From contig JAGIQG010000009.1 of the NCBI GenBank assembly GCA_024679065.1, positions 66,340,001 to 66,404,000 of the forward strand: 64,000 nt of DNA, written 5' to 3'. The notes under the pieces were generated by a model that ran no database searches, was not told the DNA's origin, and saw nothing but the letters and a program-made list of their open reading frames with translations. This document shows positions 1,703-64,000 of this stretch, piece after piece. This DNA is from Sphyrna mokarran. Taxonomy: Eukaryota. A program made the position numbers and the translations under genes. Numbering within the stretch: position 1 is the first letter of the stretch; each line of letters opens with the position of its first letter.

Positions 1703-3305
1703 CAGCACGGTGGGACCGTGGTTAACACTCCTGCCTCAAAGCACCAGGGACCCGGGTTTAATTCTGACCTCAAGTGACTGTGTGGAGTTTAACCTTCTCT
1801 AGCTGTCTGTATGGATTTTCTCCAGGTGTCCAGTTTTCCTGCCACAATCTAAAGATGTGCAGCCAAAAGAGAAAATGCTGGAAAATCTCAGTTGTTCTGA
1901 CAGCATCTGTAAGGAGAGAAAAGAGCTGATGTTTCGAGTCCAGATGACCCTTTGTCAAACTAAAAGGCATTGAAAGTGGGAAGTATTTATACTATAAGAT
2001 AAGGGAATGAAAGAGCTACAGCCACAAAAACAAAGCAAAAGAGCACTAATGTTAGTCCATAGAGAGAGTAAAAGGTATGAATGGCCACATGGCAGAGAAG
2101 CTGAAATCAAAGGGTAAGATGACAGATGAAGATGTGGGGTGGGGTGGGGTGGGGGGAATGGGTGGAAAAGGTGGGGGGGGGAGGTAAGAAAAGGAGGGGT
2201 TAAAATAGAGAGGTGGGGGAAGAAACATAGAGAAACGACAATAAAAATGGTAGAGAACAGTTAAAAATGAAATGAAAAGAAAACAAAAAGGATAACAATG
2301 GGGTAGTGCTGGGGTGAAGCTCAACGCAAACTGGAGGAACAGCATCTCATCCTCCGGCTAGAAAATCTCAGCAAGTCTGGCAGCATCTGTGAGGAAAGAA
2401 AAGAGCTGATGTTTCAAGTCGAGATGGGAGATATTTATACTGCAGGGTGAGGGAATGAAAGATGAGTCATAGCCACAGAAACCAGGGAAGAAGACTCCGA
2501 ATGGCAATAAAAAGGTTGTGAATGGGCAAACAGCAGAAAAGCTAAAATCAGAGGGTCGACTGTGACAGATTAAAAAGTTTGGGTGGGGGGGCGGTGCTGG
2601 GGGGAGCCCTCCGGTCTTAACACCAAATTCAACAGCTTCAGACAATTCGCTCGACCCCACTTTGACCATTTTGTTTTCATTTCATTTTTAAACTGTTCTC
2701 TATCTTTTATTTCTTTATGTTTCTCCTCTCTTCCCCTATTTCATTCCCCCTTTGCCTCAATTTTACCTCTTTCCACATCATCCCTGCCTCGCTATCTTCC
2801 TCTGTCACAGTTGACCCTCTGATTTTAGCTTCTCTGCTGTTTGCCCATTCACACCTCTTATTGCCATTCGGAGTCTTTTCCCCTGGTTTCTGTGGCTGTG
2901 ACTCATCTTTCATTCCCTCACTCTGCAGTGTAAGTATCTCCCATTTCCTGTGTCTTTTAGCTTTGGCAAAGGGTCATCTCGACTTGAAACGTCAGCTCTT
3001 TCCTTTCCTCACAGATGCTGCCAGACCTGCTGAGACTTTCCAGCGTTTTCTCTTTTGGTTTCAGAGTCCAGCATCTGCAGCAAATCGCTTTTAACTAAAG
3101 ATGTGTGGGTTAGGTTGATTGGCTGTGCTAGATTGGCCATGCTAAATTACGGTCCAAAAATGTGCAGGTTAGGTGGATGAGCCATGGGAAATGTGTGGAA
3201 TACAGGATAGGGTGGAAAAGGGCTCTGTGCGGGATGTTCATTTGGAGAGTTAGTGCAGACTCCACGGGCCTGGTGGCCTCTTCCTGCACAGTAGGAATTC
3301 TTTGG
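1703..3305 (+). mobile_element. HE1-type SINE split by a Penelope insertion (5' part 1703-1860, 3' part 3095-3305)
   Basis: Head and tail are collinear across the insert; ctaaagatgtg duplicated at 1849-1859 and 3095-3105. Confidence 0.85.
1861..3094. mobile_element. Penelope-like element 3' end with inverted pLTR copies
   Basis: + strand GIY-YIG C-terminal peptides GEAQRKLEEQHLILRL (2311-2360) and PSGLNTKFNSFR (~2607-2642); - strand pLTR copies at 1863-2310 and 2358-2600; decayed hammerhead motifs. Confidence 0.85.
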
Positions 3306-5879: not shown

Positions 5880-6150
5880 AGCCATTGCCATCGGCACTTG
5901 TGTGGTTTGAATGTTACTTGCCACTTGTCAGCCCAAGCTTGGACATTGTCCAGATCTTGCTGCATTTGGGCATGAACTGCTTCAGCGTCTGAGTAGTTGG
6001 AATAGAGCTGAATATCTGCGAACATCCCCACTTCTGATGTTTCAATGAAAGAGAGGTCAGTAAGGAAGCAGCTGAAGATGGTTAGGCCTAGGACACTACT
6101 CTCAGCAACTCTTGCAGTGACGTCCTGGAGCTGAGATGATTGCCTGCCCC
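5880..6150 (-). mobile_element. CR1-clade LINE RT fragment
   Basis: MFAD...MQQDLDNVQAWADKWQVTFKPHKC; same family as 30350-31170. Confidence 0.8.
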
Positions 6151-12830: not shown

Positions 12831-13295
12831 TTCAGGACAGACAGAGGTCTTGATTTTTCAACTGTAATGGGAGCAATTTTGTGCCCACATTGTTCCCACC
12901 CAGAAACGTTAGGGACCTCTCTTCAATACACTAACAGCTGATTAGGTGGCTCCCCTGCTGTATCATCCCCTCCCATTAGAAATTTCCCAACCAGGTTTAC
13001 AACAAGACTTTAAAAACTGGAATAAGCAAAAGGGAACCAGTCAGAGGTATACACGTAAGTACAACTTCTGAGGGAGGGGGTGTGGGAAGGAAACATGGCT
13101 GGGTACTGTCCTGGCAGTGCCCCGGCACTATCTTAACACTGCCCCAGGCTCAGTGCCAGAGAGCGGAAATGGGACTTCATTTGGATAGCTCCATTCGGGG
13201 CTGGGTGGTTCCAATGTCCTGATGGGTGGGAGGGTATGATAAGGATCTTTATCTCCGTGGGGGGTCTTTTTTTTAAAAAGATCAGCTGGACAGCC

Positions 13296-13440
13296 AACAC
13301 TGCACTTGCCTGATGAAGACACAGGAGTGTTGAAAGCTCGCTATTTTACTATCAAATAAATCGGTTGGATTAATAATTGGTGTTGCTAAATTCTTACTGA
13401 GTTCTTACCACTCCAATCCAACGCTGGCATCTTTACATCA
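13296..13440 (+). mobile_element. ~140-bp ORF-less Penelope pLTR-derived element with hammerhead
   Basis: TSD cagccaaca at 13291-13299 and 13439-13447; near-identical to 31294-31434. Confidence 0.85.
13308..13341 (+). ncRNA. Minimal type I hammerhead ribozyme motif
   Basis: gc CTGATGA a GACAC agga GTGTT GAAA gc TC gc. Confidence 0.7.
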
Positions 13441-13649
13441 GCCAACATTAACAGCTCCTTCAAGCCCCACCCATTAGTGTGACGGATGAGACACGCCTCC
13501 AGCACTTTTGTTTTAAAACCACACCGGACAACATGGAGGGAAAGACAGCTAACCACCAGCTTTCTCACCTGGTCCAGCATTTAGAAAAAAAATGGAAACT
13601 TTTGCCCAAAATATCCATTCTGCTAAAGGTTTATTGATCTGAAACATTA

Positions 13650-16975: not shown

Positions 16976-17131
16976 NNNNNNNNNNNNNNNNNNNNNNNNN
17001 NNNNNNNNNNNNNNNNNNNNNNNNNNNNNNNNNNNNNNNNNNNNNNNNNNNNNNNNNNNNNNNNNNNNNNNNNNNNNNNNNNNNNNNNNNNNNNNNNNNN
17101 NNNNNNNNNNNNNNNNNNNNNNNNNNNNNNN
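16976..17131. other. Assembly gap (156 N)
   Basis: Run of N. Confidence 1.
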
Positions 17132-19185: not shown

Positions 19186-19416
19186 CCAAATCAAGACAGG
19201 AGAGATGAGTGGTTTGCATCTGCTGGAGTTCTTCCCATCCTGTGTAAGAAGCCTCATCAATCCATATGTCAATTAATTAAGCAGCATGGATCACACCAGA
19301 TAGAGGGACAGAACGCGTTAGCAGTCTCCTCTCATCCGGTGAGACGCTGCTGAAACCTTGCATTGAACAGTATCTGAGGCAATGACAGAACTTCTTAGAT
19401 CTTTAAGCTAAGGAAC

Positions 19417-19723
19417 CCCCGTAACTTGCCTGGATTAGCAAAAAACCTCACTTACTGTGCTGTCTGGAGAAAATACACAATTCTCTAACCAATGCTCAGG
19501 ATTCCCTTCACACACATTGTTAGCCACTTTAACACTTGAATAGCAGGTTAGATGTAAGGATTCGCATTCTAATCAGCAATCTGTAACTGTCTGTGTGGAT
19601 ATGAGTGCCTCTGCAGATCAGAACACTGCATTTGCCTGACGAAGGCACAACATAGTATCGAAAGCTCGCAGATTTACTATCAAATAAATTGGTTGGATTT
19701 AAAATTGGTGTTGCAAAACTTTA
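19417..19723 (+). mobile_element. Solo Penelope pLTR with hammerhead
   Basis: Homologous to 59880-60158; TSD ctaaggaac at 19408-19416 and 19724-19732. Confidence 0.85.
19630..19673 (+). ncRNA. Minimal type I hammerhead ribozyme motif with 6-bp stem I
   Basis: ATTTGC CTGACGA a GGCAC aacata GTATC GAAA gc TC GCAGAT. Confidence 0.75.
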
Positions 19724-20517
19724 CTAAGGAACAGAGACAGTGCTCTGTGCTCATTTGCCTCACTGTAAAGCTGGTGGTCCTTTACCTGCCATTTTGTGCC
19801 TCTATTTTTCAGTGCTGCAATCAAGCTCAGCCCCAGCTCCATTGGCAGACCCGTAACACAAAAGGCAGCAGCACTAATACCCAGGTTAGCATGACGACTT
19901 AGTACAGGAGGCTGCTTTTCCACACACTCATACTGTCACTCAGCAGAAGGGATTGGGCAGCGGCAACATTTGGCCAGCCAGCTCCCATGGGCCAGCGGAT
20001 TTTCTCAGCTGGAATTAGAATGACGGGTTCCGGAGTTCCAGGCCCGAGTACATGTTGTATTCATGTCAGTTGTTATTGCAACTTCAAACATACATGAAGC
20101 AAACTGATGAGTACTGGGCACCTCCAGCGAATTGCTCAGTGTGGAAATGGTTCACAATACATTAAAAAAACCCACCAGATTTAATTCCCAACTGCTTTGC
20201 CAGAATAGGGAAATGATTTTCTGAAATGGAACAGGATGAATTAAGTCTACCTTGTTGTGTTTGAATCATCTGCTGCGTGACATTTGCTTCACAAACTGGT
20301 CACTGTGCTGCCAGGCACTCAAAGCACAAGACCATTTTGTTCTTAAACAATGGTGTCCATTTAGTTTGGATGATAGGAGATCATCCTTGCATCAGCTGCC
20401 TATTTACAACTCTCAAGTTGGCATCTAATTCTGACTGCAACACACCAGCACCCCCATCGCTCCTCAACATTGCACCTTGACCTGCTGGAAAAAGATGATG
20501 AGCTGCCTAAGCCAGGG

Positions 20518-20762
20518 AGTAAAAAGTCTTATAGCACCAAGTTAAAGTCCAACAGGTTTATTTGATAGTAAACACCACAAACTTTTGGAACACTTTCGTC
20601 AAGTGAGTGGACAGTTCTGATCAGAAACAAGGCATATAAAGGCACACACAATTTACAGCTTGTGGCACTTACGATCAAATAAACCTGTTGGACTTTAACT
20701 TGTGTGTTGTGAGACTTCTTACTGTGTTTACCCCAGTCTAAAGCCAGCATCTCTACATCATG
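20518..20762. mobile_element. Inverted pair of Penelope pLTR ends
   Basis: gttaaagtccaacaggtttatttgat mirrored by atcaaataaacctgttggactttaac; + copy ends in ccccagtctaaagccagcatctctacatca. Confidence 0.85.
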
Positions 20763-29199: not shown

Positions 29200-30226
29200 A
29201 GTTGATGGGAAATATTCAACTTGGAGTTCAGTTACAAGTGGTGTACCTCAGGGATCTGTTTTGGGGCCACTGCTGTTTGTCATTTTCATAAATGACCTAG
29301 CTGAGAGTGTAGAAGGAATGGGTTAGTAAATTTGCTGATGACACCAAAGTCGGAGGAGTTGTAGACAGTGAGGATGGATGTTACAGTTTGCAGAGGGACA
29401 TAGCTAAGCTGCAGAGCTGGGCCAAGAGGTGGCAAATGGAGTTTAATGCAGAAAAGTGTGAGGTGATTCACTTTGGTAAGAGTAATAGGAGTACAGAATA
29501 TAGGGCTAATGGAAGGACTCTTCGTAGTGTTGACGAGCAGAGAGATCTCAGTGTATATGTGCATAGCTCCCTGAAAGTTGGCACCCAGGTTGATAAAGTT
29601 GTTAAGAAGGCATACAGTGTGTTAGCTTTTTTTGGTAGAGGGATTGAATTTCGGAGCTGTGAGGTCATATTGCAACCGTACAAAACTCTGCTGCAGCCGC
29701 ACTTGGAATATTGCCTACAGTTCTGTTCGCCGCATTATAAGAAAAATGTGGAGGCATTGAAAAGGGTGCAAAGGAGGTTTACCAGAATGTTGCCTGGTAT
29801 GGTGGGAATGTCTTATGAGGAAAGGCTGAGGGACTTGAGATTATTTTCATTAGAGAAAAGAAGATTAAGAGGTGACCTAATTGAGGCACACAAAATGATC
29901 AGAGGGTTAAATAGGGTGGACAGTGAGAGCCTTTTTTCTTTGCTTGGTGATGGCTAACACAAGAGGACATGGCTTTAAATTAAGGGGTGGTAATTATAGG
30001 ACGGATGTAAAGAGATAGATTCTTTACTCAGAGGGTAGTAAGGGTGTGGAATGCCTTGCCTGCAGCAGTTGTGGACTTGACAACTTTAAGGGCATTCAAA
30101 TGGTCAGAGGATAGGCATATGGATAAGATTGGAATAGATTAGGTTAGAGGGTCATTAGATTGGTTCCATTGCTTGGCGCCACATCGAGGGCCGAAGAGCC
30201 TGTATTGCGCTGTAATGTTCTATGTT
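29200..30226 (+). mobile_element. HER1/CR1 LINE, 5'-truncated
   Basis: [26 protein letters not shown]; ttctatg tail; TSD ctaaaaatgc at 29190-29199 and 30227-30236. Confidence 0.92.
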
Positions 30227-30349
30227 CTAAAAATGCTATATAAATCCACACACTGTTGTGGAATTCCCAGTCTCAACAACAATACATTTCTGAAGGGTAG
30301 ATGGATTCACTTTCCTCATGAAGATGAGAGAATTTAATCCATTCCTCTT

Positions 30350-31170
30350 CTGCAGCAAGACCTGGACAATATCTAGTCTTGGGCTAACAAATGGCAAGTA
30401 TCACACACACCACACAAATTCCAGGCAATGAACATCTCCAATAAGATCATATCTAACCATCATACCTTGACAATCAATAGCATTAACATCTGAATTCCCC
30501 ACTATAACCATCCTGGGGGTTACCACTGACCAGAAACTCAACTGAACTAGCCGTATAAATAAATACAATTTCTCCAGGTCAGAAACTAGGATTCCTACAC
30601 GTGTAACTCACCTCCTGACTCCACAAGCCTGTTCACCATTGACAAGGCATAAGTCAGGAGTGTGGTGGAGTATGCTCCATTTGCCTAGAAGAATACAGTT
30701 CAAACAACACTCAAAAAATTCAACATCACCCAAGGTAAAGCAGCCTTCTTGACTGGCACCCCATCACAAACATTCACTCCCTCCACCAATAGCATATAGT
30801 AGCAACAATGTATACCATCTACAAGATGGTACAAAATCTACAAGGAACTCAGGCTTTTTAGACAGCACCTTCCATACAAATGACCGCTACAAATCTAGAA
30901 GGACAAGAACAGCAAACACATGGGAACATCATCATCTTGAAGTTCCCTTCCAAGTTATTAACCATCCTGACTTGGAAATATATCACCATTCCTTCACTGC
31001 CATTGGGTCAAAATCCTGGAAATTTCTCCCTAACAGCACTGTGGATGGACCTACACCACAAGAACTGCAGTGATTCAAAAAGACAGCTCACCACCACTTA
31101 CTTAAGGGTAATTAGTGATGGGCAATAAATGCCAGCCTAGCCAGTGACGCACACGTCCCTTGAATGAATA
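30350..31170 (+). mobile_element. CR1-clade LINE 3' fragment (second family; more pieces at 36470-36785 + and 52880-53180 -)
   Basis: LQQDLDNI...WANKWQV; tail gatgggcaataaatgccagcctagccagtgacgcacacgtcccttgaatgaata. Confidence 0.8.
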
Positions 31171-31236
31171 AAATAAAACAGTAAGAATTTAGCAACACCA
31201 ATTTATAATCCAACCGATTTATTTGATAGTAAAAAA

Positions 31237-31269
31237 GCGAGCTTTCAACACTCTGTGTCTTCCTCAGGC
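31237..31269 (-). ncRNA. Minimal type I hammerhead ribozyme motif
   Basis: Reverse complement reads gc CTGAGGA a GACAC aga GTGTT GAAA gc TC gc. Confidence 0.65.
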
Positions 31270-31303
31270 AAATGCAGTGAACACTGCAGTGAACACTGCA
31301 TTT

Positions 31304-31336
31304 GCCTGAGGAAGACACAGAGTGTTGAAAGCTCGC
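31304..31336 (+). ncRNA. Minimal type I hammerhead ribozyme motif
   Basis: gc CTGAGGA a GACAC aga GTGTT GAAA gc TC gc. Confidence 0.65.
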
Positions 31337-32514
31337 TTTTTTACTATCAAATAAATCGGTTGGATTATAAATTGGTGTTGCTAAATTCTTACTGAGTTCT
31401 TACCACCCCAATCCAACGCCGGCATCTGTATATCATAAAATAAAACACGCAGTCCTTAATTTCAGGCAATCCCCGGGTTGGAATTTTGTGTCAAGTTGGG
31501 TCCTGCAGGAATCGTGCTTGGACTCCAACTATCAACAGTCTATATCAACAATTTGGATGCGAGAGCCAAACAGAATGGGCCTGAGCTTCTGTGGTGTGTC
31601 AGTCAGAGTCAGATTGCCACTATGCCCCTACTGCTTAACTGCAAATCTTCACGATCCAGTCTCTCCTGCCTTCAGGCTCAGTGAGCACAGTGCAGGGTAA
31701 TGCACCCCTCAGCACTGCAATACCAGACAGGAAGAGGCTGCAGCTCAGTTTTGTGTCACACCAGCTGCCCTAATTCAGTGAGTTTACAGATGCTGTCACT
31801 TACAAACCAGCCAGAAAATAGGCCGCCAGTTATGTGACTAGAATTTGGTAGGCAGGTTGTGGTTTGCACTCAGGAGAAGTTTGACAGTTGGTGGGAAGCC
31901 AGTCAGGGGGTGTGACTTTTGAGGGTACGTAACAACATGAGAAAACACTTCAACAGAGGCAGTTAAATACTGACCAAGGAGACATAGGAAAGGAGACCGT
32001 GAAAAAAGGCCTTCACTTTAAACATTAGTTTGTCCTTTCTTTTTACAGATGTTAATTGACTTGCCTGTGTGTTTTCAAACTATTCTCTTTGTGTTGATCT
32101 GCATTGTATCCTATCTCTTCAATGTAGCTTAACAATTTGCTGTTGCGAACAATACTGCATGATTTCTTCTGCTAAACTGAGGGTCATCTCACATTCTTCA
32201 ATGCTGCCTTTCGCCTCTATCCAACTCTTGAAGATCATTTTATGCTAATGTCACCTCCTCCTCATCCATGTTGTAGCTCTGACTGCACCTTGAACTCTCA
32301 CCATGAAAACTCATTCTTCATCTCTGAACAAACTGATAATAAGCCCATTAACAGACTCAACTGGCCATTTAAAAAATTTGGGTGGATTGCCAATTACACT
32401 TTTGAAAATGAAATGTCTTACACCAAGAAAGGGCATGCTGACCCGGGGATGGGAGCTTTAAGCCATTAAGGGCAAGTGTTCAATGTTTTATTATTCATTA
32501 TTCATTACCATAAG

Positions 32515-36345: not shown

Positions 36346-39074
36346 AAAGATCTAGGCCAGAATCTTATCACTGCTTATGCCGACAGAATTTTCCTATCCT
36401 GTTGCAGTAAACAGAGATTTGGCTGGTTGCCAAATTCTCCGACCTCACTGAGGCGGGAGCGTGGTGTGACAGCTTGTCCAACAGCACTTTCCAAACTCAC
36501 AGCCACTACCTCTGGGAAGAACAAAAGGCAGCAGGAGCATGGGAACACTACCAACTGCAAGTTCCCCTCCAAGCCACTCACCATCCTAACTTGGAACCAT
36601 AATCGCCATTCCTTCACTGCCACTGGGCCAGGGTAAACCCTCCCTAACAGCACTCTGGATGCTCCTACAACACATGGACTGCAGCAGTTAAAAAAGGCAA
36701 CTCACCACCACCTTCTCAAGGGTAATTAAGGGTGGACATTAAATGCTGGCTGAGCCAATAATGTCCCATGAATGAATTAAAAATAAGCATGACTTGCTTT
36801 GCTTTTTACTGTATATATTGAATTTATGTATGAATGATAAAGAACATCTGTTTCAAATATATTTTCAAAAATATATTTGCATTAAAAAATGTGCAAACAA
36901 TGTTACAATGTAGAGATTTAATATTCCAAAACGACTTACAAGGAGAGTCATCCAGAATGAAGTCGGGGTCACTCTCCTGGCCTCGTCCTTAGCTTCTAGA
37001 CTCTTGGCAATCTAAAGTGTACAATAATCAATAAAAGAATTAATAACCCAAAATAGTAAAACACCAATAAATTACCAAAAAGCAAAAAAAACCCTCGCTT
37101 CTACTGTGATCAGCTAACGCACCACAAGAGAAAGCAGTATAAAAATATACTTAGTGCTTCGATGAACCAAATTGGGAGGATGCAAAAAACGTGCTGAACT
37201 GCAGGAACAGCAAGCCATCGGTACAATAATATAAACATTATTTATGATAAAATATTTCAGTGTTTGAGTAGAGATCCATTTTATAATAATTATATTTCCC
37301 AAAAATAAATCAGGAACGGTATACCTGAATGAATGAATTTCATATATGAATGAAAATTCATTGATTAATAATGAAAGAAAAATCATTTCCATTCTTAGGG
37401 CAAAATGAATGATGATCCAATTATATGTATGTTTTTCTTTTTCAAATAGGAAATCAATCAGTTGCCCCCTCCTTCATAAAACAGGAACATCCAAACACCC
37501 GCAAAAAGTCCCAAAGCTTCAAATGTTGCACCAGGAAAGGACTTTTAAAACAAAGGTCAAAGCAAATCTCAGTTCAACTCAGCACTTCCGTAAATGGACA
37601 ATGAACAGAACTGATCCCATTCTGACAGAGTATTCAGCTGTGGGATAACTGAGTCTGATCAGCGTCTGTTCAATTCCTTCTCGCTGTCTTTTCAAGGCTA
37701 AATTAAATCAGAGTCTTTCTACATATGCCAAACTACAATCTGAATCACCATTCAACCGAAGCTGTGATATTCCTTCTGAACAACACTGCGGTAAAATATC
37801 CACTTGAAAATGGTGTGTCTTCCAAGTGTTTGGAAAGGATGCCAAAATCTTTCATTTTGAAGTGTTCCCCTTTAAAGCACATCGTGTCACTCTGGGCGAG
37901 TGAATTCAATTGGTAACAGCAGGGCAATAAACACTTTATCCACGTGTCCTGAAAATTACTCGCAAGTTTAGTGCCATTTTTGATTCACTTCTTGATGAAG
38001 CGCAGAATGTAACAGAGGATCCAATAAAACATTGTTATTTCTGTGATGAAAGTTAGAACCGAATGTATCAAGATAATTTCCCCTCACTTTATTCCAAGAA
38101 GTTCTCTCTGTGCTCATTTACATATCAGCCTGTCGTAGGTGTATAGCCAACGTTTTCAATTTATTAGTATGAATTCAGTGGGAAATTACAGTCAAAGTAC
38201 ACATACTCCAACGTAGCTGCAGTCCTGTTGCACTGCATTATGTCCAACGTAACAGATTTCGCACCTGGCTGTTGCAAATCAGGCTGTTAAATTAGAGTCA
38301 AAAAGTGGATGAACAAAGTTTATGAATGGATGAGACAAACTGCACAAGGGTTCTTTCAGACATCCTGATTTCTTTACCTGACAATCGCGGCCACCCCAGT
38401 CAGAAGGCGGTTAAAAAGTCACTAGGGATCATCTGCTCAATGGGAGCCTGATTAGTCAAGTAACTTAACCAGTGGGAATTTCATCTGCATCCAAAATCCA
38501 GTACTGTTAAAATTGGGAATGGAGCAGGAAATGGAATCAGTCCATTTGGATTGCTCCCCCCATTCCTTTCCCTCTGACCCAAGAACTGTTACTGTTCATC
38601 TTTTACTACAGCAGTGAGGAGTGGAACCCACAATGGAACAATGATGTGGCAGGTCAATTTTCAACATGGTCTCTGCGTGAAGTGGTGAGCAGAAACCCAA
38701 ATATCCTCCTGATATGAAAGAGAGAACAAAACTGAATGACAGGACCATTCACTAACCCAGGCAGAAGCATCTAACTGCACCAGACAATGAGAATCCAGTC
38801 TAACGTTTTGGAGTGAGTTAGGAGGAATTAACTCAAGTCAAATACTAGGGCAGAGAAAGCAAAGCAAACACACACTCATATACTTGCAACACTCATTTAC
38901 GAAGGGGTTACTTCTTTGTAATCTTGACCACCATCATAAATGGAAATAGGATATCGCTCATATTATTCGCTCAGAGGTCCTTAGAGAAGATTATTACTTC
39001 ATATGTAAATTGATTTTAAAAAATACATATGACAAATTAAGAAGTATATACACTTACACAAACTATTTCCCAGC

Positions 39075-39989: not shown

Positions 39990-42910
39990 ACACTCTCCCC
40001 TCCCTTCCCCCTTCCTCCAGTCCACTAGGAACATCTGTTACATGTCTCAGGTGATCCTTTGACACTTTGCTTACCTTTGTTCTATTAATTACACATTCTG
40101 ATCTCTTAATGATCGCCCTTCTTAGCCATGATCATCAGCATTTCTATTCCCTTTTATCTTTTGTCCATACCATCATTATCCGTTACCAACTCACCCTTAC
40201 AATGAGAATATAAGATCATCAAATTATCTTATATTCTATTCTCTTCAGTTCTGACGAAGGATCATCCAGACTCAAAACGTTAGCACTATCCTCTCTCCAC
40301 AGAGCCTGTCAGACCTGCTGAGATTTTATAGCACTTTCTGTTTGTGTTTCAGATTCCAATATCTGTGATATTTTGTCTTTATCTTGGTGTTTAACTCACT
40401 GTTACTTCTCTTGCAGAGTACCTATCCTGAAGAAGTATTGTTCTTCTCTGGCAGGATTTCCATTTGTCTCTTTCACCCGGTGCACTATCACTGCTTTCCA
40501 TTTCCATCTAGCGTTTGACAAATTTTTAACCAAAGCTCGCTTTCACAAGCATATTATCTTCCTCACCAACTGTCTCCATTTCCAATTTACTCAACGTCGA
40601 TTCCACCACTCATGTTTCAAATCTGCCAGGATTACAGGTATCTCCAGGACAACAACGCTCTTTGAGAACTGCTGTTCTTGCCACTCTCTGTGCCATGCAC
40701 TGTCACATGCACACCCTCTCTCCAGCAACTCTGACTCACTCCATCTCAAAGCTTATCCCCAGTTTCATTTCATTCTTTGTCTCACCTGATATCTCAACAA
40801 GAAACTCTTCCTTTCAGGTGTAAGGAACATAAGCTTCAACAACTCAAAGGAGATTTTCACAGTAACTTCATTGCAGAATTAACGTAAGTCTACTCATAAC
40901 ACTAATAAATAAACTCTATACCAATGCCCATCCAGGACTCTCTTCCCTTTCCTGCTCCTGATTCCATCCCCCTGAATCTCAGTCTTTGCCATGTATTCAC
41001 CACCCTCTGACCTTTGCTTCACTGATGCTGAGCGTACCATATTCAACAAAAGATTTAGCTTTGTACCCTTATGTCCTCACCTTCATGAATCTCACGCTCA
41101 ATGCAATGCTGAGCTCTTCCTTTGCTGCCTTTGTCTCCGTGTTTTCTTTGGGTAGGAGTCCTCCCCCCGTTCAACAGATCCTTTCACTCACCTACAGCAC
41201 TTTCCCTCTATCAGGACCCCTCTCTCCAGTCTCTTACTTGCTCTTGATGTTTTCATTGAGAACTGTAGGCATGACATTGGCTGGCTGTCTCAATTTCTCT
41301 ACTATTCTGACCTGATTCCTTCTGAACTTGCATTTTGCTCTCTCAGGTTCAACTCTCGCTTTGTCATCAAACCGGCTGACAAGTCTCCCTTGTCCAGTCC
41401 CTTCCCACCAGTTGCTGTCTGCCATACTAATCTCTACCTCGCAGAGGCTGAATGCCAATTCTCAGACACTTCTTCCTACCTTCCCTTGGATCGTGACCCT
41501 ACAAACAAACATGAAGTCACTGTTTCCAGAACTGTCACTGACCTCATCTCCTCTGGAGATCTTCCTTCCACAGCATCCAACCCCCTGGTCTCCCAACCCC
41601 AGACAGCCCACTTCTACCTCCTTCCCAAAAATCCAGAAATAGGACTGCCCCAGTCAGTGCATCGGACGGGATTTTACAACCTCGCTCATCCAGAAACCGT
41701 AAAATCCTGCCCAAGGTCAACAGACCTTTCCATGCTCTACCCCTCACCTGCTCCAATTCCCATGGTAGACAGGACAGTAAAATTCCAACCATCGTATCAG
41801 TCGGTTCCTGAACTCATTTCTTCCCATCTTAACTCTATTCTTCCTCCTCTTGTCCAGTCCCATCCCACCTACACCCAGATATCCTCCAGTGCCTTATGTC
41901 ATGACAACAATTTCCAAAGGTCCAAACCATCTTTTCCTTACCGTGGATGTCCATTCTCTCTGCACCTCCATTTCTCATCTGGATGGCCTGAGAGCTCTTT
42001 GCTCCTTTCTCAAAACGGAGACCTGAACAATCTCCATCACCACCACTTCCCCCTCTGGCTGAACTAATTCTCTATTCAACAATTTCTCCTTTAACTCGTT
42101 TCACTTCCCTCCAGATAAAAGATGTGGCAATGGGCATTTGTATGTGTCCCAGTTATGCCTATCTCTCTATGGGGTATGTGGAACGTTCCCTGTTCCAGTC
42201 CTTTTCCAGCCCGTTCCCACAACTCCTTTAAATGGTAATCAATAAATATTTTGGTGCACTTCATGCTTTCATCTGGATCTGAAAAAATTTGGTTCACGAG
42301 CAGGGACCGGACTTTCCTGTCGCTTGCCATTTCAACACATCACCCTGTTCTCCTGTCCATTCTTGGCCTGTTACACTGTTCCAGTGAAGCTCAATCCAAA
42401 CTGGAGTTTCAGCATCTCATCTTCCAATTAGGCACTTTCCAGTCTTCTGGATTCAGCTTTGAGTTCAACAACTTGAGAGCATGAACTCTCTCATTCACAT
42501 TCACTTACTCCCTTCCATTTTTTTTCATTTCTGCTATTGTTTCATTTTGCCACCTTTTTTTAATCTCACTTTCCAGGTTTTTCCCCCACCATGGTCTCCA
42601 TTGTCCCCAAGCCACCTCAGGTCACCTGTTATACGCCTCAGGTTATCCTTTGACATTCTGCTCACCTTTATTCTGACATTTACACATTCTGATCTCTTAA
42701 TGGCCACTGTCAGCACCCTTCTTAGCCATGATCACCAACAGTTACATTCTCCTTTTCTTTTTATCCATGACATGTTTGTTAATTTGGTCCCCCCACCCCA
42801 CCTCACCCTAATAGTATAAATATCATCTGATATTCTATTATCTTCAGATCTGACAAAAGGTCCTCCAGTTGTGAAGTGTTGTCTCTATCTTCTCTCCACA
42901 GATGCTGTAT
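39990..42910 (+). mobile_element. Near-complete decayed Penelope-like element (pLTR-ORF-pLTR)
   Basis: Direct pLTRs ~39990-40375 and ~42560-42910; RT motifs VIKPADK, LYLAEA, FYLLPK, GVAMG-like; GIY-YIG end EAQSKLEFQHLIFQLGTFQSSG; many frameshifts. Confidence 0.85.
41664..41790. mobile_element. MITE, PIF/Harbinger-like
   Basis: TIR ggacgggattttac / gtaaaattccaacc; 3-bp TSD atc; interrupts the Penelope RT PGRPIVS-like motif. Confidence 0.75.
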
Positions 42911-47212: not shown

Positions 47213-48323
47213 AGAACATAGAACATAGAACATTACAGCACAGAACAGGCCCTTCGGCCTTCGATGTTGTGCCGACCAAAATAAAAAGCAATGCCCCTCC
47301 AAACTAAACATTCCCTTCTCTTCCATATACTTATCAATTAACCTCTTAAACGCCACCAAACTTGGCGCATCTACAACAGCTGCAGGCAGGGCATTCCACT
47401 CCCTAATCACTCTTTGAGTAAAGAACCTACCTCTGATATCCGTCTATAACTCATACCCCTTAATTTAAAGCTGTGTCCCCTCGTGCTAGCTTTCTCCATC
47501 CTAGGAAAAAGGCTATCACTGTCCGCCCTATCTAAACCTCTAATCATCTTATATGCTTCAATAAGATCCCCTCTTAGCCGCCTCCTTTCTAACGGAAACA
47601 ACCTCAAATCCTTCAACCTCTCTTCATAGGACCTGCCCTCCATACCAGGCAACATCCTGGTAAACCTCCTCTGTACCCTCTCCAATGCCTCCACATCTTT
47701 CTTATAATGTGGCGACCAGAACTGCACACAATACTCCAAGTGCGGCCGCACTAGAGTTTTGTACATTTGCAACATGATGCTGCGGCTCCTAAATTCAATC
47801 CCCCTACCAATAAAAGCTAAAACTCCATATGCCTTCTTAACAACTTTATCCACTTGACTGCCTACTTTCAGGGATCTATTGACACATACACCAAGATCCT
47901 TCTGTTCCTCAACACTATTAAGAGCCATACCATTAGCCCTATACTCTACACATTTATTGTTCCTGCCAAAGTGCATTACATCACACTTTTCCACATTAAA
48001 CTCCATTTGCCACCTCTCGGCCCAGCTCTGCAACTTGTCCAAGTCACTCTGTAAACTATAACACCCCTCTTCACTATCTACCACTCCACCGACTTTAGTG
48101 TCATCTGCAAATTTACTGATCCATCCCTCAATACCCTCATCCCGATCATTTATAAAAATTACAAACAGCAGGGGCCCCAAAACAGACCCCTGAGGCACAC
48201 CACTCATCACCGAACTCCACGATGAATATCTCCCATCAACCACCACCCTCTGTCTTCTATCTGCCAGCCAATTCCTAATCCAATTAGCTAAATCACCCTC
48301 TAAATCACCCTCTAAATCACCCA
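47213..48323 (-). mobile_element. Young HER1/CR1 LINE, 5'-truncated
   Basis: 305-aa RT C-half ([14 protein letters not shown]); (agaacat)n tail; att duplicated at the junctions. Confidence 0.95.
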
Positions 48324-58895: not shown

Positions 58896-59090
58896 TGTTT
58901 AGCACCTTTAAATGTAGTAAAATTACTCAAGGTGTTTTGAAGCAAAATGTTTCAACGAGTCACAAAAGGGGCTAATGACCAAAAATTTAGTGAGAGATAG
59001 ATTTCAAGGTGCGTTGAAATGAAGTGAGAAAGACAGAGAACGTTTAGGATGAAATTCCAGAGCTTAGCACCTTGACAGCTGAAGGCATGA

Positions 59091-60158
59091 TGTGGAGATG
59101 CCAGCATTGGATTGGGGTAAACACAATAAGAAATAAGAAATCTCACAACACCAGGTTAAAGTCCAACAGGTTTATTTGTTGTCACAAGCCACTAGCTTTC
59201 AGAGCATTGCCTCTTCATCAGGTGAATGGGAGTTCTGTTCACAAACAGGGCACATAAAGACACAAACTCAATTTACAAAATAATAGTTGGAATGCAAGCC
59301 TTTACAGGTCATCAAGTCTTAAAGGTTCAGATAATGAGAGTGGAGAGATAGTTAAGCACAGATTAAAAGAGATGTGTATTGTCTCCAGCCAGGCCAGTTA
59401 ATGAGATTTTGCAAGCCCAGGCAAGTCATGGGGATTACAGGTGGTGTGACATGAACACAAGATCCCGGTTGAGACCGTCCTCATGGGTGCGAAACTTGGC
59501 TATCAGTCTCTGCTCAGCGACTCTGCATTGTAGTGTGTCATAGGGGCCAATTTGGAGAATGCTTACAGTCAGAGGCAAACGCCCATGACTGCTGAATTGT
59601 CCCCAACAGGAAAAGAACATTCTTGCCCGGTGATTTTCGAGTAGTGTTCAATCATTCGTTGTCGTAGTGTCTACATGGTCTCCCAGTGTACCATGCCTCG
59701 TGACAGCCTTTCCTCCAATGTATCAGGTAGACAACATTGCCCGAGTTGCAAGTGCATATACCTAGTAAATAGGTGACCTTCACGACACACAGAGTCGCTA
59801 AGCAGAGACTGATAGCCAAGTTCTGTACACATGAGGATGGCTTCCACCGGGATCTTGGGTTCATGTTACACCATCTGTAACCCCCACGATTTGCCTGAGC
59901 TTGCAAAATCTCATTAACTGGCCTGGCTGGAGACAGTACACATCTCTTTTAACCTGTGCTTAACGCTCTCTCCATTATCTGTACCTTTAAGAATTGATTA
60001 CCTGTAAAGACTCGCGTTCCAACCATTATTTTGTAAACTGAGTTTGTGTCTTTATATGCCCTGTTTGTGAACAGAACTCCCACTCACCTCATGAAGGGGC
60101 AGCGCTCCGAAAGCTCGTGGCTTGTGATACCAAGTAAACCTGTTGGACTTTAACCTGG
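59091..60158. mobile_element. Penelope-like element 3' end with inverted pLTR, inserted in an L2 remnant
   Basis: - strand GIY-YIG peptides NVVYLIHWRKGCHEAWYTG and RVAEQRLIAKFRTHEDGLNRD; inverted arms ~59150-59545 / 59775-60158; TSD agctgaagg(c/t)atga at 59077-59090 and 60159-60172. Confidence 0.92.
59189..59225 (-). ncRNA. Minimal type I hammerhead ribozyme motif
   Basis: TCAC CTGATGA AGAG gcaatg CTCT GAAA gc TA GTGG. Confidence 0.65.
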
Positions 60159-60534
60159 AGCTGAAGGTATGACAGGCGGAGAATTGAAATGGAGGATATC
60201 TCACAAATGTCTCTTGAGTGTAGCAGTGATGTGGATTGCTTATTCTTCAAACAAATCTCCATATTTCCAGGACAGAATGAGGACAACATTGGAGGAAAGA
60301 AAAATACGGTTTAGGGCACAATGGTGGAAGGGGTTTAAAAAAAAAAAATGGAGAAAAGAGCATATGAAGATGTACTCAAAATTACAAAATACTATATAGT
60401 GTAGATGAGGCCTTTCAGCCCATCGAGTCCACATTGGCACATGAAAGGCTCTCTCGGAGGCTTCTTAATTTGAATAAACAAATAATTTACAAGGTTGCTT
60501 CTGTAGCTGCTTGCTTCAAACTTGTTCATAGTAC

Positions 60535-61123: not shown

Positions 61124-62470
61124 AGGGTGGCAAGTTGGCACAGTTGTTAGCACTGCTGCCTCACAAAACAGACCTCAGGGGTCTGTTTTGGGGCCCCTGC
61201 TGTTTGTAATTTTTATAAATGATCTGGATGAGGGTATTGAGGGATGGATCAGTAAATTTGCAGATGATACTAAAGTTGGTGGAGTGGTAGATAGTGAAGA
61301 GGGGTGTTTTAGTTTACAGAGTGACTTGGACAAGTTGCAGAGCTGGGCCGAGAGGTGGCAAATGGAGTTTAATGTGGAAAAGTGTGAGGTAATGCACTTT
61401 GGCAGGAACAATAAATGTGTAGAGTATAGGGCTAATGGTAGGGCTCTTAATAGTGTTGAGGAACAGAAGGATCTTGGTGTATGTGTCAATAGATCCCTGA
61501 AAGTAGGCAGTCAAGTGGATAAAGTTGTTAAGAAGGCATATGGAGTCTTAGCTTTTATTGGTAGGGGGATTGAATTTAGGAGCCGCAGCATCATGTTGCA
61601 ACTGTACAAAACTCTAGTGCGGCCGCACTTGGAGTATTGTGTGCAGTTCTGGTCGCCACATTATAAGAAAGATGTGGAGGCATTGGAGAGGGTACAGAGG
61701 AGGTTTACCAGGATGTTGCCTGGTATGGAGGGCAGGTCCTATGAAGAGAGGTTGAAGGATTTGAGGTTGTTTTCGTTAGAAAGGAGGCGGCTAAGAGGGG
61801 ATCTTATTGAAGCATATAAGATGATTAGAGGTTTAGATAGGGTGGACAGTGATAGCCTTTTTCCTAGGATGGAGAAAGCTAGCACGAGGGGACACAGCTT
61901 TAAATTAAGGGGTATGAGTTATAGGACGGATATCAGAGGTAGGTTCTTTACTCAAAGAGTGATTAGGGAGTGGAATGCCCTGCCTGCAGCTGTTGTAGAT
62001 GCGCCAAGTTTGGTGGCGTTTAAGAGGTTAATTGATAAGTATATGGAAGAGAAGGGAATGGTTTAGTTTGGAGGGGCATTGCTTTTTATTTTGGTCGGCA
62101 CAACATCGAAGGCCGAAGGGCCTGTTCTGTGCTGTATTGTTCTATGTTCTACAACTCCAGGGACCGGACATAATTCTAGCCTTGGGTCACTGTGCGCAGT
62201 TTGCACGTCACCCTCCCCCTTCCTGTGTCAGTGTGGGGTTTCCTCTAGGTGCTCCGGTTTCCTCCCACAGTCCAGAGATGTACAGGTCAGGTGGACTGGC
62301 CGTGCTAAATTGCCCCTTAGTATCTTGAGGTGGGTAAATTAAATGGATTAGTCATAGCAACTGTGTGGGGTTATAGGGTGGAGAAGAGGACCTGGGCAAG
62401 ATCCTCTTTCACAGTCAGTGCAGGCTCGATGGGCCAAATGGGCTCTTCTTCACTGTAGCAATTCTATGAC
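61124..62470 (+). mobile_element. HE1-type SINE split by CR1 (61124-61166, 62151-62470), next to a Deu-type head at 61065-61123
   Basis: ctgcctcacaa | acaactccagggacc continuity. Confidence 0.85.
61167..62150 (+). mobile_element. Young HER1/CR1 LINE, 5'-truncated, frame open to the native stop
   Basis: RT C-half PQGSVLGP...FADD...; TSD acaa; near-identical to 47213-48323. Confidence 0.95.
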
Positions 62471-62782: not shown

Positions 62783-63444
62783 TTAATCAACTATGTGATG
62801 AAGGATATTGGAATCTTTAACATCATTATTCATATAACGCCAACTACAACGTGCATACAGAAGTGTATGTTGCCACAGCAACAAATGCTCACCGAGAGAA
62901 CTACAACACAGCACCAAGAGGGATATATAATTAAAATGGAGTTCAATTCAAAATCAATGCAGCATTTCATTAAACTCTATGTCATCAATTTTAAGATATA
63001 ATATAATCACATATTTATGAAACACCAAAAATATGTAGAGTAACTGCAGGGGAGAATTAACTATACAGCTCGCAAAGACTTCTAATATTTACTGAATATT
63101 GATATTCAGGCCTTATAGCTAATGATTTGCAATGTATCTGTGCATTTTACTTCAGTTGATGATTGAGTTGGTAATTAAAGCAATGGGGTCAGTTGAGGTG
63201 GGTGGGGAGGAGATGTTGGGAACCAAACTCAGTCTGGTATAACAGCATCATCAAGGGATGTGGATGTGTTCTCCATCTTTACCTGACATTGGGTGACACA
63301 GTGGTCAGCACTCCTGCCTCACAGCTTCAGGTTCAATTCCGGCCTTGGGTCAGTGTCAGTGTGGTGTTTGCACATTCTCCCCACACTGATATTTGACACT
63401 CTAGGTGTGCTGACAAGAGTAGAATTGCTTCCTTCAATTAACCA

Positions 63445-63775
63445 ATGATAGAATCCCTACAGTGCAGAAGGAAGGTCATTCGGCCCATCGAGTCTGCACC
63501 AGAACAATCCCACCAGGCCTCATCTTCATAACCCACAGATTTACCCTGCTAATCCCTCTAACCTATGCATCCTGGGACACTAAGGGGTAATTTAGCATGG
63601 CCAATCAATGTAACTCTCATATCTTTGAAGTGTGGGAGGAAACCAGAGCACCCAAAGGAAACCCATACAGACATGGAGAGAATGTGCAAACACCACACTG
63701 ACACTGACCCAAAACTGGAATTGAACCTGGATCCCTGAAGCAGTGAGGCAGGAGTGCTAACTACTGTGCCACCCA
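63445..63775 (-). mobile_element. HE1-type SINE, with an inverted partial duplicate at 63290-63383
   Basis: Reverse-strand tail and head. Confidence 0.88.
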
Positions 63776-64000
63776 ATGTCGGGTAAAGATGGAGGACACG
63801 TCCACATCCCTTGATGATGCTGTTGTATCAGCCTAAGTTGTTTGGCCTCTCAAATATCCAAATCAAGCAAAAGCCGGAACACACACTCTGATCATCAGTT
63901 ATTTTTGTAAATCTTCAGGATCAGTTGATGGTTGAGGCTGAGTGCAGAAGCATCTTGAACAGACAACAGCAGCTACTCCAAAGGTGTACAGGTTAGGTTG

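Follow-up and report, generated by a model that had tools for sequence, protein, structure and literature searches.

A hammerhead-bearing palindrome in Sphyrna mokarran, most probably left by the insertion of a Penelope-like element

The closest described counterparts of the locus reported here are insertions of endonuclease-positive Penelope-like elements (PLEs). According to Craig et al. 2021 (PMC8557442), PLE insertions are 5'-truncated and often have an adjacent inverted truncated copy, with a tail of 30-40 bp at one end; these authors describe the transposition cycle as still undefined, and assign a Zn-finger-like linker to Neptune and Nematis rather than to Penelope/Poseidon. Arkhipova et al. 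2013 (PMC3846280) describe inverted pseudo-LTRs (pLTRs), mostly placed head to head, with a 31-bp tail, target-site duplications (TSDs) of 8-10 bp, and a palindrome where the inverted copies meet. The PLE protein from Anolis cuts and extends both strands of AT-rich DNA; its reverse transcriptase (RT) starts at two sites bounding the tail, a dimer is predicted, and hammerhead cleavage is not needed in vitro (Frangieh et al. 2024, PMC11167929).

The minimal hammerheads of pLTRs were described by Cervera and de la Pena 2014 (PMC4209133), who report no cleavage for monomers and low cleavage for dimers, opposite-strand pairs of motifs 100-700 bp apart, and a variant with a 2-bp helix I. In Drosophila, siRNAs match the inverted regions of rearranged Penelope copies (PMC3681739). 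Retrozymes, as described by Li et al. (bioRxiv 10.64898/2026.07.22.740005), are head-to-tail tandem units with at least two complete motifs; the non-LTR retrozymes are short PLE-derived sequences that code for nothing and contain a type I hammerhead, and they are reported from the one cartilaginous fish sampled. A search of the openly readable literature for shark PLE hammerheads led to a review (PMC6155905) that uses the word "shark" for a shape. The subfamily described below may already be named in subscription papers, Repbase or Dfam.

We analysed a window of 64,000 nucleotides from a Sphyrna mokarran assembly (GCA_024679065.1, contig JAGIQG010000009.1, positions 66,340,001 to 66,404,000 of the forward strand). 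All coordinates below refer to this window, which contains an assembly gap at 16976-17131 and 156 N in total. A palindromic unit near 31 kb was compared with the published systems, with related copies in the same window, and with contigs from sequencing runs. We put the probability that this 31-kb unit is a PLE insertion whose palindrome formed at integration at about 0.9.

The two arms (31179-31279 and 31294-31394) are exact reverse complements over 101 of 101 bases, in agreement with the initial annotation, and are the sole exact inverted repeat with arms of more than 40 bases among the matches listed for the window. The direct repeat ATAAAATAAAACA, a 13-mer found at 31168-31180 and 31435-31447, was rightly proposed to be a TSD; its copies are identical at 13 of 13 positions, and when both strands are counted it occurs at two places in the window, which are the two TSD sites. 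The element and the TSD overlap by 2 bases at each end. On the left, the last 2 bases of the TSD copy, which lies in the A-rich end of a host LINE, belong also to the left arm; on the right, the first 2 bases (AT) also suit the end of the tail in sibling copies. The spacer between the arms (31280-31293, AACACTGCAGTGAA) has the 14 bp previously given to it. The centre, formerly presented as a spacer with its own palindrome, is better read as 2.3 tandem copies of a 12-nt repeat (31273-31300), assigned to neither strand and including the spacer. Judged from the sequence and the alignment, every base of the junction is accounted for by the 9 bases at the end of the truncated copy or by the complement of these 9. 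Folded as RNA, the region reaches -182.8 kcal/mol (z = -30), and none of 200 shuffles folded as well.

Between the right arm and the right TSD copy lie 40 nt (31395-31434) that have no counterpart on the left, so the unit is asymmetrical. The initial annotation missed this one-sided sequence and left the element unidentified; the inverted copy, the tail and the TSD together point to a Penelope-like pLTR. The left arm, on the minus strand, is an inverted, tail-less, 5'-truncated pLTR copy, and its 3' end is the tail-less site at which a solo sibling ending near 19723 also stops. The direct copy, on the plus strand and likewise 5'-truncated, occupies 31292-31394, the right arm proper beginning at 31294 and similarity to siblings at 31291-31292. 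It alone carries the 40-nt plus-strand PLE tail, which was delimited by alignment to siblings. We assign the unit to the PLEs because an inverted truncated copy, a tail of 30-40 bp, a TSD, a palindrome at the junction and a minimal hammerhead make up the published PLE signature. The likeness to endonuclease-positive PLE insertions extends to the head-to-head arrangement and the AT-rich target. Unlike those insertions, the 31-kb unit has only about 100-140 nt per arm and no ORF, its TSD is 13 bp long in contrast to the 8-10 bp of the rotifer examples, and its arms are truncated at almost the same base, resulting in a near-complete palindrome with a 12-nt stutter at the centre.

The reading of the unit as a non-autonomous MITE or foldback DNA transposon, or as a selected hairpin-RNA gene (miRNA or siRNA) with a hammerhead-like sequence, would also account for a long inverted repeat within a TSD, and the region has sub-threshold matches to Rfam miRNA models. 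However, the inverted repeats are not terminal, since the 40-nt tail separates the right arm from the TSD, and solo, non-palindromic copies of the same sequence exist with 9-bp TSDs of their own. None of the Rfam matches reaches its gathering score, and the resemblance in the five alignments displayed is one of hairpin shape; on these grounds a miRNA identity was rejected. A contig from a related species (run X4) aligns to the flank and not to the tail or TSD, which argues weakly against this reading. We regard this as the least probable of the explanations considered.

Motif scans and self-comparison revealed five pLTR insertions in the window, two of them solo and three inverted pairs, the 31-kb unit included. 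The arm of the unit matches 13298-13439 at 93% (40-nt tail included), 19624-19718 at 84%, and 59089-59228 at 66%; it also matches two pieces within 20535-20759. Tail or extra bases are confined to one arm in all three inverted pairs. Both solo copies are flanked by 9-bp TSDs; one ends with the 40-nt tail, and the other just before it. The former (13291-13447) belongs to the same subfamily as the 31-kb unit, and its 5' end lies at most 4 bases from that of the unit, 10-14 nt upstream of the hammerhead core, at a position that is not the predicted hammerhead cut site. The latter (19408-19732) is a near-complete pLTR of about 310 bp that stops at the tail-less site; in its part beginning at 19624, the point equivalent to the 5' edge is preceded by CAG, which could suit a splice acceptor or the start of a transcript.

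The pair at 59077-60172 is older. Its arms, at about 59089-60158, agree at 88% over 375 columns, and their truncation points lie about 265 bases from each other; its 14-bp TSD has 1 mismatch, and it carries a frameshifted GIY-YIG-like C-terminus. The pair at 20518-20760 is a decayed member of a related family with a tail on the right only; a convincing TSD was looked for at this pair, and none was found. Three further inverted pairs (1863-3058, 2357-3044, and 63226-63839) are decayed and 70-86% alike, two of them nested or overlapping near 2-3 kb. They contain none of the motif-scan matches of the pLTR family and were set aside.

There is no ORF sequence inside the 31-kb unit, and its arm is linked to an RT and GIY-YIG protein by two steps of DNA similarity, at 84% and then 71%. 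In the second of these, the solo copy (19414-19713) and the 59-kb element match at 200 of 283 aligned bases, starting right behind the ORF stop; the part upstream of the shared arm alone scored 117, compared to a maximum of 42 in 200 shuffles. The 45 codons before the 59-kb stop matched 3 proteins among 65 candidates (best E 4.4e-13). The ORF remnant matched protein P0002 with an E of 1.2e-11, and P0002 also matches a second frame of the remnant. P0002 passes the Pfam cut-off for GIY-YIG and matches 41 of 91 longer candidates, among which the named ones are mostly from sharks and two unnamed RT-bearing proteins have 881 and 882 aa. In all three RT-bearing homologues examined, a Cys motif is located between the RT and a C-terminal endonuclease-like region, and the C-termini of the three align back to 59438-59771. 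The 59-kb remnant itself had no Pfam GIY-YIG match in any of its 3 frames, because it is frameshifted. A comparison with the ESM Atlas pointed, as a lead only, to a GIY-YIG cluster with a score of 0.88, in 16% of members.

These similarities suggest that the arm is the 3' end of a pLTR related to that of an RT + GIY-YIG element, and that the element is probably endonuclease-positive and Neptune-like. We propose that the inserting RT + GIY-YIG protein was encoded elsewhere; an autonomous partner of the exact subfamily was looked for, and none was found. The Poseidon element PAc of Anolis (PMC11167929) resembles the unit in its two 3' ends bounding the tail, its AT-rich target, and the hammerhead in its pLTR; unlike PAc, the related shark ORFs carry the Cys motif between RT and endonuclease. 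Elsewhere in the window, 41027-41650 has weak tblastn matches to the N-terminal half of PLE proteins (27-31% identity, E 1e-5 to 4e-8) and is probably, to judge from these, an older and more distant PLE remnant. Some annotated isoforms of shark host genes (e.g., P0012, P0018, P0022, and P0042) contain a piece of the PLE endonuclease region; these pieces are either exonised repeats or annotation artefacts.

The insertion lies in a decayed, 5'-truncated LINE remnant with pieces resembling an RT thumb, on the plus strand at 30340-31180 (left boundary approximate). This remnant is 73% identical to a sibling at 36481-36786 and 80% identical to 5883-5964; the sibling ends at about 36770-36786, matching the A-rich end that was used as TSD. 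The claim that the palindrome sits in the A-rich tail of a CR1-clade LINE is correct as to the LINE and its A-rich end. CR1 is at most a candidate clade, the remnant being 25% identical (E 1e-5) to a neighbouring RT-bearing LINE and having no Pfam match in 3 of 3 frames. The 3' parts of RT-bearing LINEs are present in three copies, 79% alike, at 29201-30232, 47219-48240, and 61172-62154, the first directly 5' of the host LINE. A Pfam scan for a host gene in 79 of the 111 stop-to-stop frames that have at least 85 aa gave 0 matches, a scan that short exons would escape. A sigma-70 promoter scan, irrelevant to a vertebrate locus, returned no promoter.

Each arm contains a minimal type I hammerhead motif. 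The plus-strand motif (31304-31336, C3 at 31306), located by motif scan and alignment, has the core CTGAGGA, an additional A following position 9, a helix II of 5 bp with a closing G-U, GAA, a palindromic AGCT, and a C at 31334 as H17; helix I has 2 bp, and the predicted cut falls after 31334. The minus-strand motif (31237-31269, C3 at 31267), found by motif scan, has the same core set and a predicted cut after 31239. The core, the extra nucleotide after position 9, the palindromic 15.2-16.2 and helix II are features of metazoan minimal hammerheads; unlike these, which have a helix I of 4-5 bp and usually G10.1-C11.1, the motif in the 31-kb unit has two contiguous helix I pairs and a G-U. Its 2-bp helix I is shared with the D. 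virilis hammerhead variant. Helix I has 6 pairs in the sibling at 19624 and 4 in the 59-kb copies.

A hammerhead descriptor, written after the motif had been seen, occurs at 5 places in the window, whereas 100 shuffles averaged 0.06 and never exceeded 2. In an alignment of 8 rows, 76% of the cells pair, which is above all slid controls and was equalled in 0 of 500 shuffles, and 5 of 11 pairs change on both sides; the rows are related copies, and the figure is no probability. This covariation lends modest backing to a hammerhead fold. In Rfam there were 0 matches at gathering score in the window, and among the 21 sub-threshold matches over 31000-31600 none came from a hammerhead family. The sibling cores read CTGATGA and CTGACGA. 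CTGAGGA, thought at first to be private to this palindrome, appears to be common to other copies, as the loose-end consensus of run X1 at 31319 (26 contigs, agreement 0.63) contains it, and is probably a variant of the subfamily.

A hammerhead on each strand, as claimed in the initial annotation, is therefore borne out as a motif; as a ribozyme it is in doubt, with 2 pairs in helix I compared to 6 in the sibling. By analogy with the published elements, the motifs are probably passengers of the pLTR and inactive at this locus. Since they lie on opposite strands, one transcript contains one sense copy, and a cis dimer within one transcript is impossible. In either direction, transcription would make the antisense arm first, so that the motif would be hidden in the duplex and lack a partner in cis. 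The duplex suggested earlier to mask the ribozyme in read-through RNA from either strand agrees with the folding energy given above; effects of Dicer, ADAR, or cruciform extrusion at the hairpin are possible.

We consider the locus most likely a recent, heavily 5'-truncated insertion that has no selected function. The PLE endonuclease would have made its two cuts, one per strand and 11-13 bp from each other, at the A-rich end of the old LINE, where the TSD is now seen. RT would then have started at two internal sites 40 nt apart, at the end of the tail on the right and at the tail-less site on the left; both ends are present in the sequence, and their use as starts is suggested by the Anolis PLE. 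The two copies would both have ended at one 5' edge (31292-31294), which lies 12-14 nt before the hammerhead core, and been joined head to head. The 12-nt stutter at the joint could have arisen through the self-complementary TGCA, either as one aborted turn or as a later slip.

Twin priming in L1 offers a parallel. There, both nicked target strands prime RT, and a 5' inversion inside one TSD results; as its two pieces derive from parts of one RNA that do not overlap, they form no palindrome. In the 31-kb unit, by contrast, the same segment is present twice. A search of the openly readable literature found no PLE-titled paper on twin priming.

Two routes to the head-to-head copy can be distinguished within the PLE-insertion explanation. 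In one, two primed cDNAs are joined end to end. In the other, a single cDNA, running from the tail to the 5' edge, folds back, slips once at TGCA and is copied as far as the tail-less site. The fold-back route is a sub-route of the same insertion and does not alter the identity of the element. It agrees with the published reading, Arkhipova et al. 2013 (PMC3846280) having inferred self-priming from the junction palindromes. Identical arms fit it equally well, and the centre is a hairpin of the terminal bases alone. However, the copying would have to stop at the very site that serves solo copies as their 3' end, as in the sibling at 19624, which ends at the tail-less site within its own 9-bp TSD and thereby favours two primings. 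The turn also offers no paired priming stem longer than TGCA. The Anolis protein, which works on both strands and has two start sites, speaks for two primings as well. In each of five joints listed for run X1, an inverted arm meets, at its 5' edge (31277 or 31279), a direct piece whose first base is 31340, 31383, 31404, 31407, or 31414. We read them as head-to-head junctions of other copies; each is a single contig with sides of 21-28 letters and outer ends that are unseen. In three of the five the direct piece begins inside the tail (31404-31414) and is too short to be the template of the inverted arm, a weak point against fold-back. We lean towards two primed cDNAs, since the left end falls on a genuine start site and these three pieces are too short to template the arm; fold-back is the less probable route, though a substantial possibility.

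The assembled unit was compared with contigs from sequencing runs. Run X1 contains 74% of the sampled words of 30230-32300, and the other 12 of the 13 runs at most 13%; X1 may be the source of the assembly. Contigs of four runs (X1, X2, X4, and X12) were aligned at 85% likeness to 31250-32300, which covers the right arm and 30 bases of the left arm. In X1, 14,571 contigs aligned, piled on the arm, and 4,106 of these were at least 99% alike. Summed depth reached 4.2 million over the arm, compared to 12.5 over the flank, figures that give no copy number. The arm is thus marked as a very abundant repeat with young members. One X1 contig joins the end of the tail to the start of an arm (31436 to 31301) with 3 letters in between, a head-to-tail junction; tandem, retrozyme-like copies of the subfamily may exist elsewhere in the genome. 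For the 31-kb unit itself the retrozyme class was rejected; the unit is short and non-coding with a type I hammerhead, as are non-LTR retrozymes, but its copies are arranged head to head and not as head-to-tail tandems. From run X12, RNA by guess, 661 contigs aligned; they cover the arm and the tail, give no depth on the flank past 31465, and are uninformative on expression.

Assemblies are known to have difficulty with inverted PLE structures (Craig et al. 2021, PMC8557442), and a solo copy might have been turned into an inverted duplication by a chimeric read or by the assembler. Among the matches listed for 31250-32300, no contig crosses the palindrome centre or the left junction, a point in favour of such an artefact. 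The remaining observations argue otherwise. The TSD is exact on both sides, the left arm stops at a biological tail-less site and not at random, and the same architecture recurs in decayed form at two other loci in the window. X1 contig 8 matches 31409-32300 with zero differences and so joins tail, TSD and flank; to the left of the TSD it has 26 letters, below the 31-letter bar for bridging. No 12-nt deletion or skip at the centre occurs among the X1 matches listed. An artefact of assembly or library preparation is, accordingly, highly improbable. Contig 29 of run X4, from another species, aligns to 31450-32295 with 62 other letters and 7 gaps and does not cover the tail or TSD; from its coordinates, 30 letters are unaligned on the junction side. 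This gives a weak hint that the insertion is absent in that species. No empty allele was seen in the aligned contig runs.

With no mismatch in either the arms or the TSD, the rule of three (about 114 positions) sets an upper limit of about 3% on the divergence per pair. The 59-kb pair, by comparison, has diverged by 12%, the host LINE and its sibling differ by 27%, and X4 differs from the flank by about 7%. The perfect arms most likely reflect the youth of the insertion. Alternatively, the palindrome could have arisen or been perfected after insertion, through gene conversion, hairpin repair, or an inverted duplication of a solo copy at a stalled fork. Closely spaced inverted repeats are able to convert, and the 12-nt duplication could be a later slippage. 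However, the TSD is also perfect, though it lies beyond the reach of arm conversion; because of this independence, youth suffices as an explanation without homogenisation. The left arm stops at a PLE-specific site, and the number of X1 contigs that are at least 99% alike fits a young subfamily. A post-insertion origin is therefore very unlikely, if a little less so than an artefact. The later homogenisation of the arms that had been offered as an option is unlikely as a general process, since the older pair in the window has decayed to 88%. The other option of the initial annotation, an inversion made from one template at insertion, stands in that formation at insertion is the likeliest course; the argument for a single template from the private core has little force, as the core seems to occur in other copies too and so many of the X1 contigs are nearly identical.

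As a single locus, the 31-kb unit is one young copy of a very abundant repeat with a published architecture. It is ordinary, and no new RNA system. Its value is that of a clean specimen, in which an undecayed junction, both 3' start sites, the TSD and the 12-nt stutter are preserved together; junctions of this kind, gathered genome-wide, can separate the two-primer from the fold-back models. It also gives a warning to those who predict hairpins and miRNAs, as PLE insertions score well on miRNA models through shape alone.

A wider proposal, which we offer tentatively and which as a whole is more likely wrong than right, is that the subfamily moves as a short non-coding RNA with its 5' end fixed just upstream of the hammerhead. 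A dimeric PLE protein would copy two RNAs at once, one per nicked strand and from different RT start sites, and would routinely seed near-perfect hairpins of about 100 bp in shark genomes. If this is true, the junctions would be a large natural data set for telling two-RNA priming from self-priming, the step of the PLE cycle that is still open; the hairpins would be a sizeable source of endogenous double-stranded RNA.
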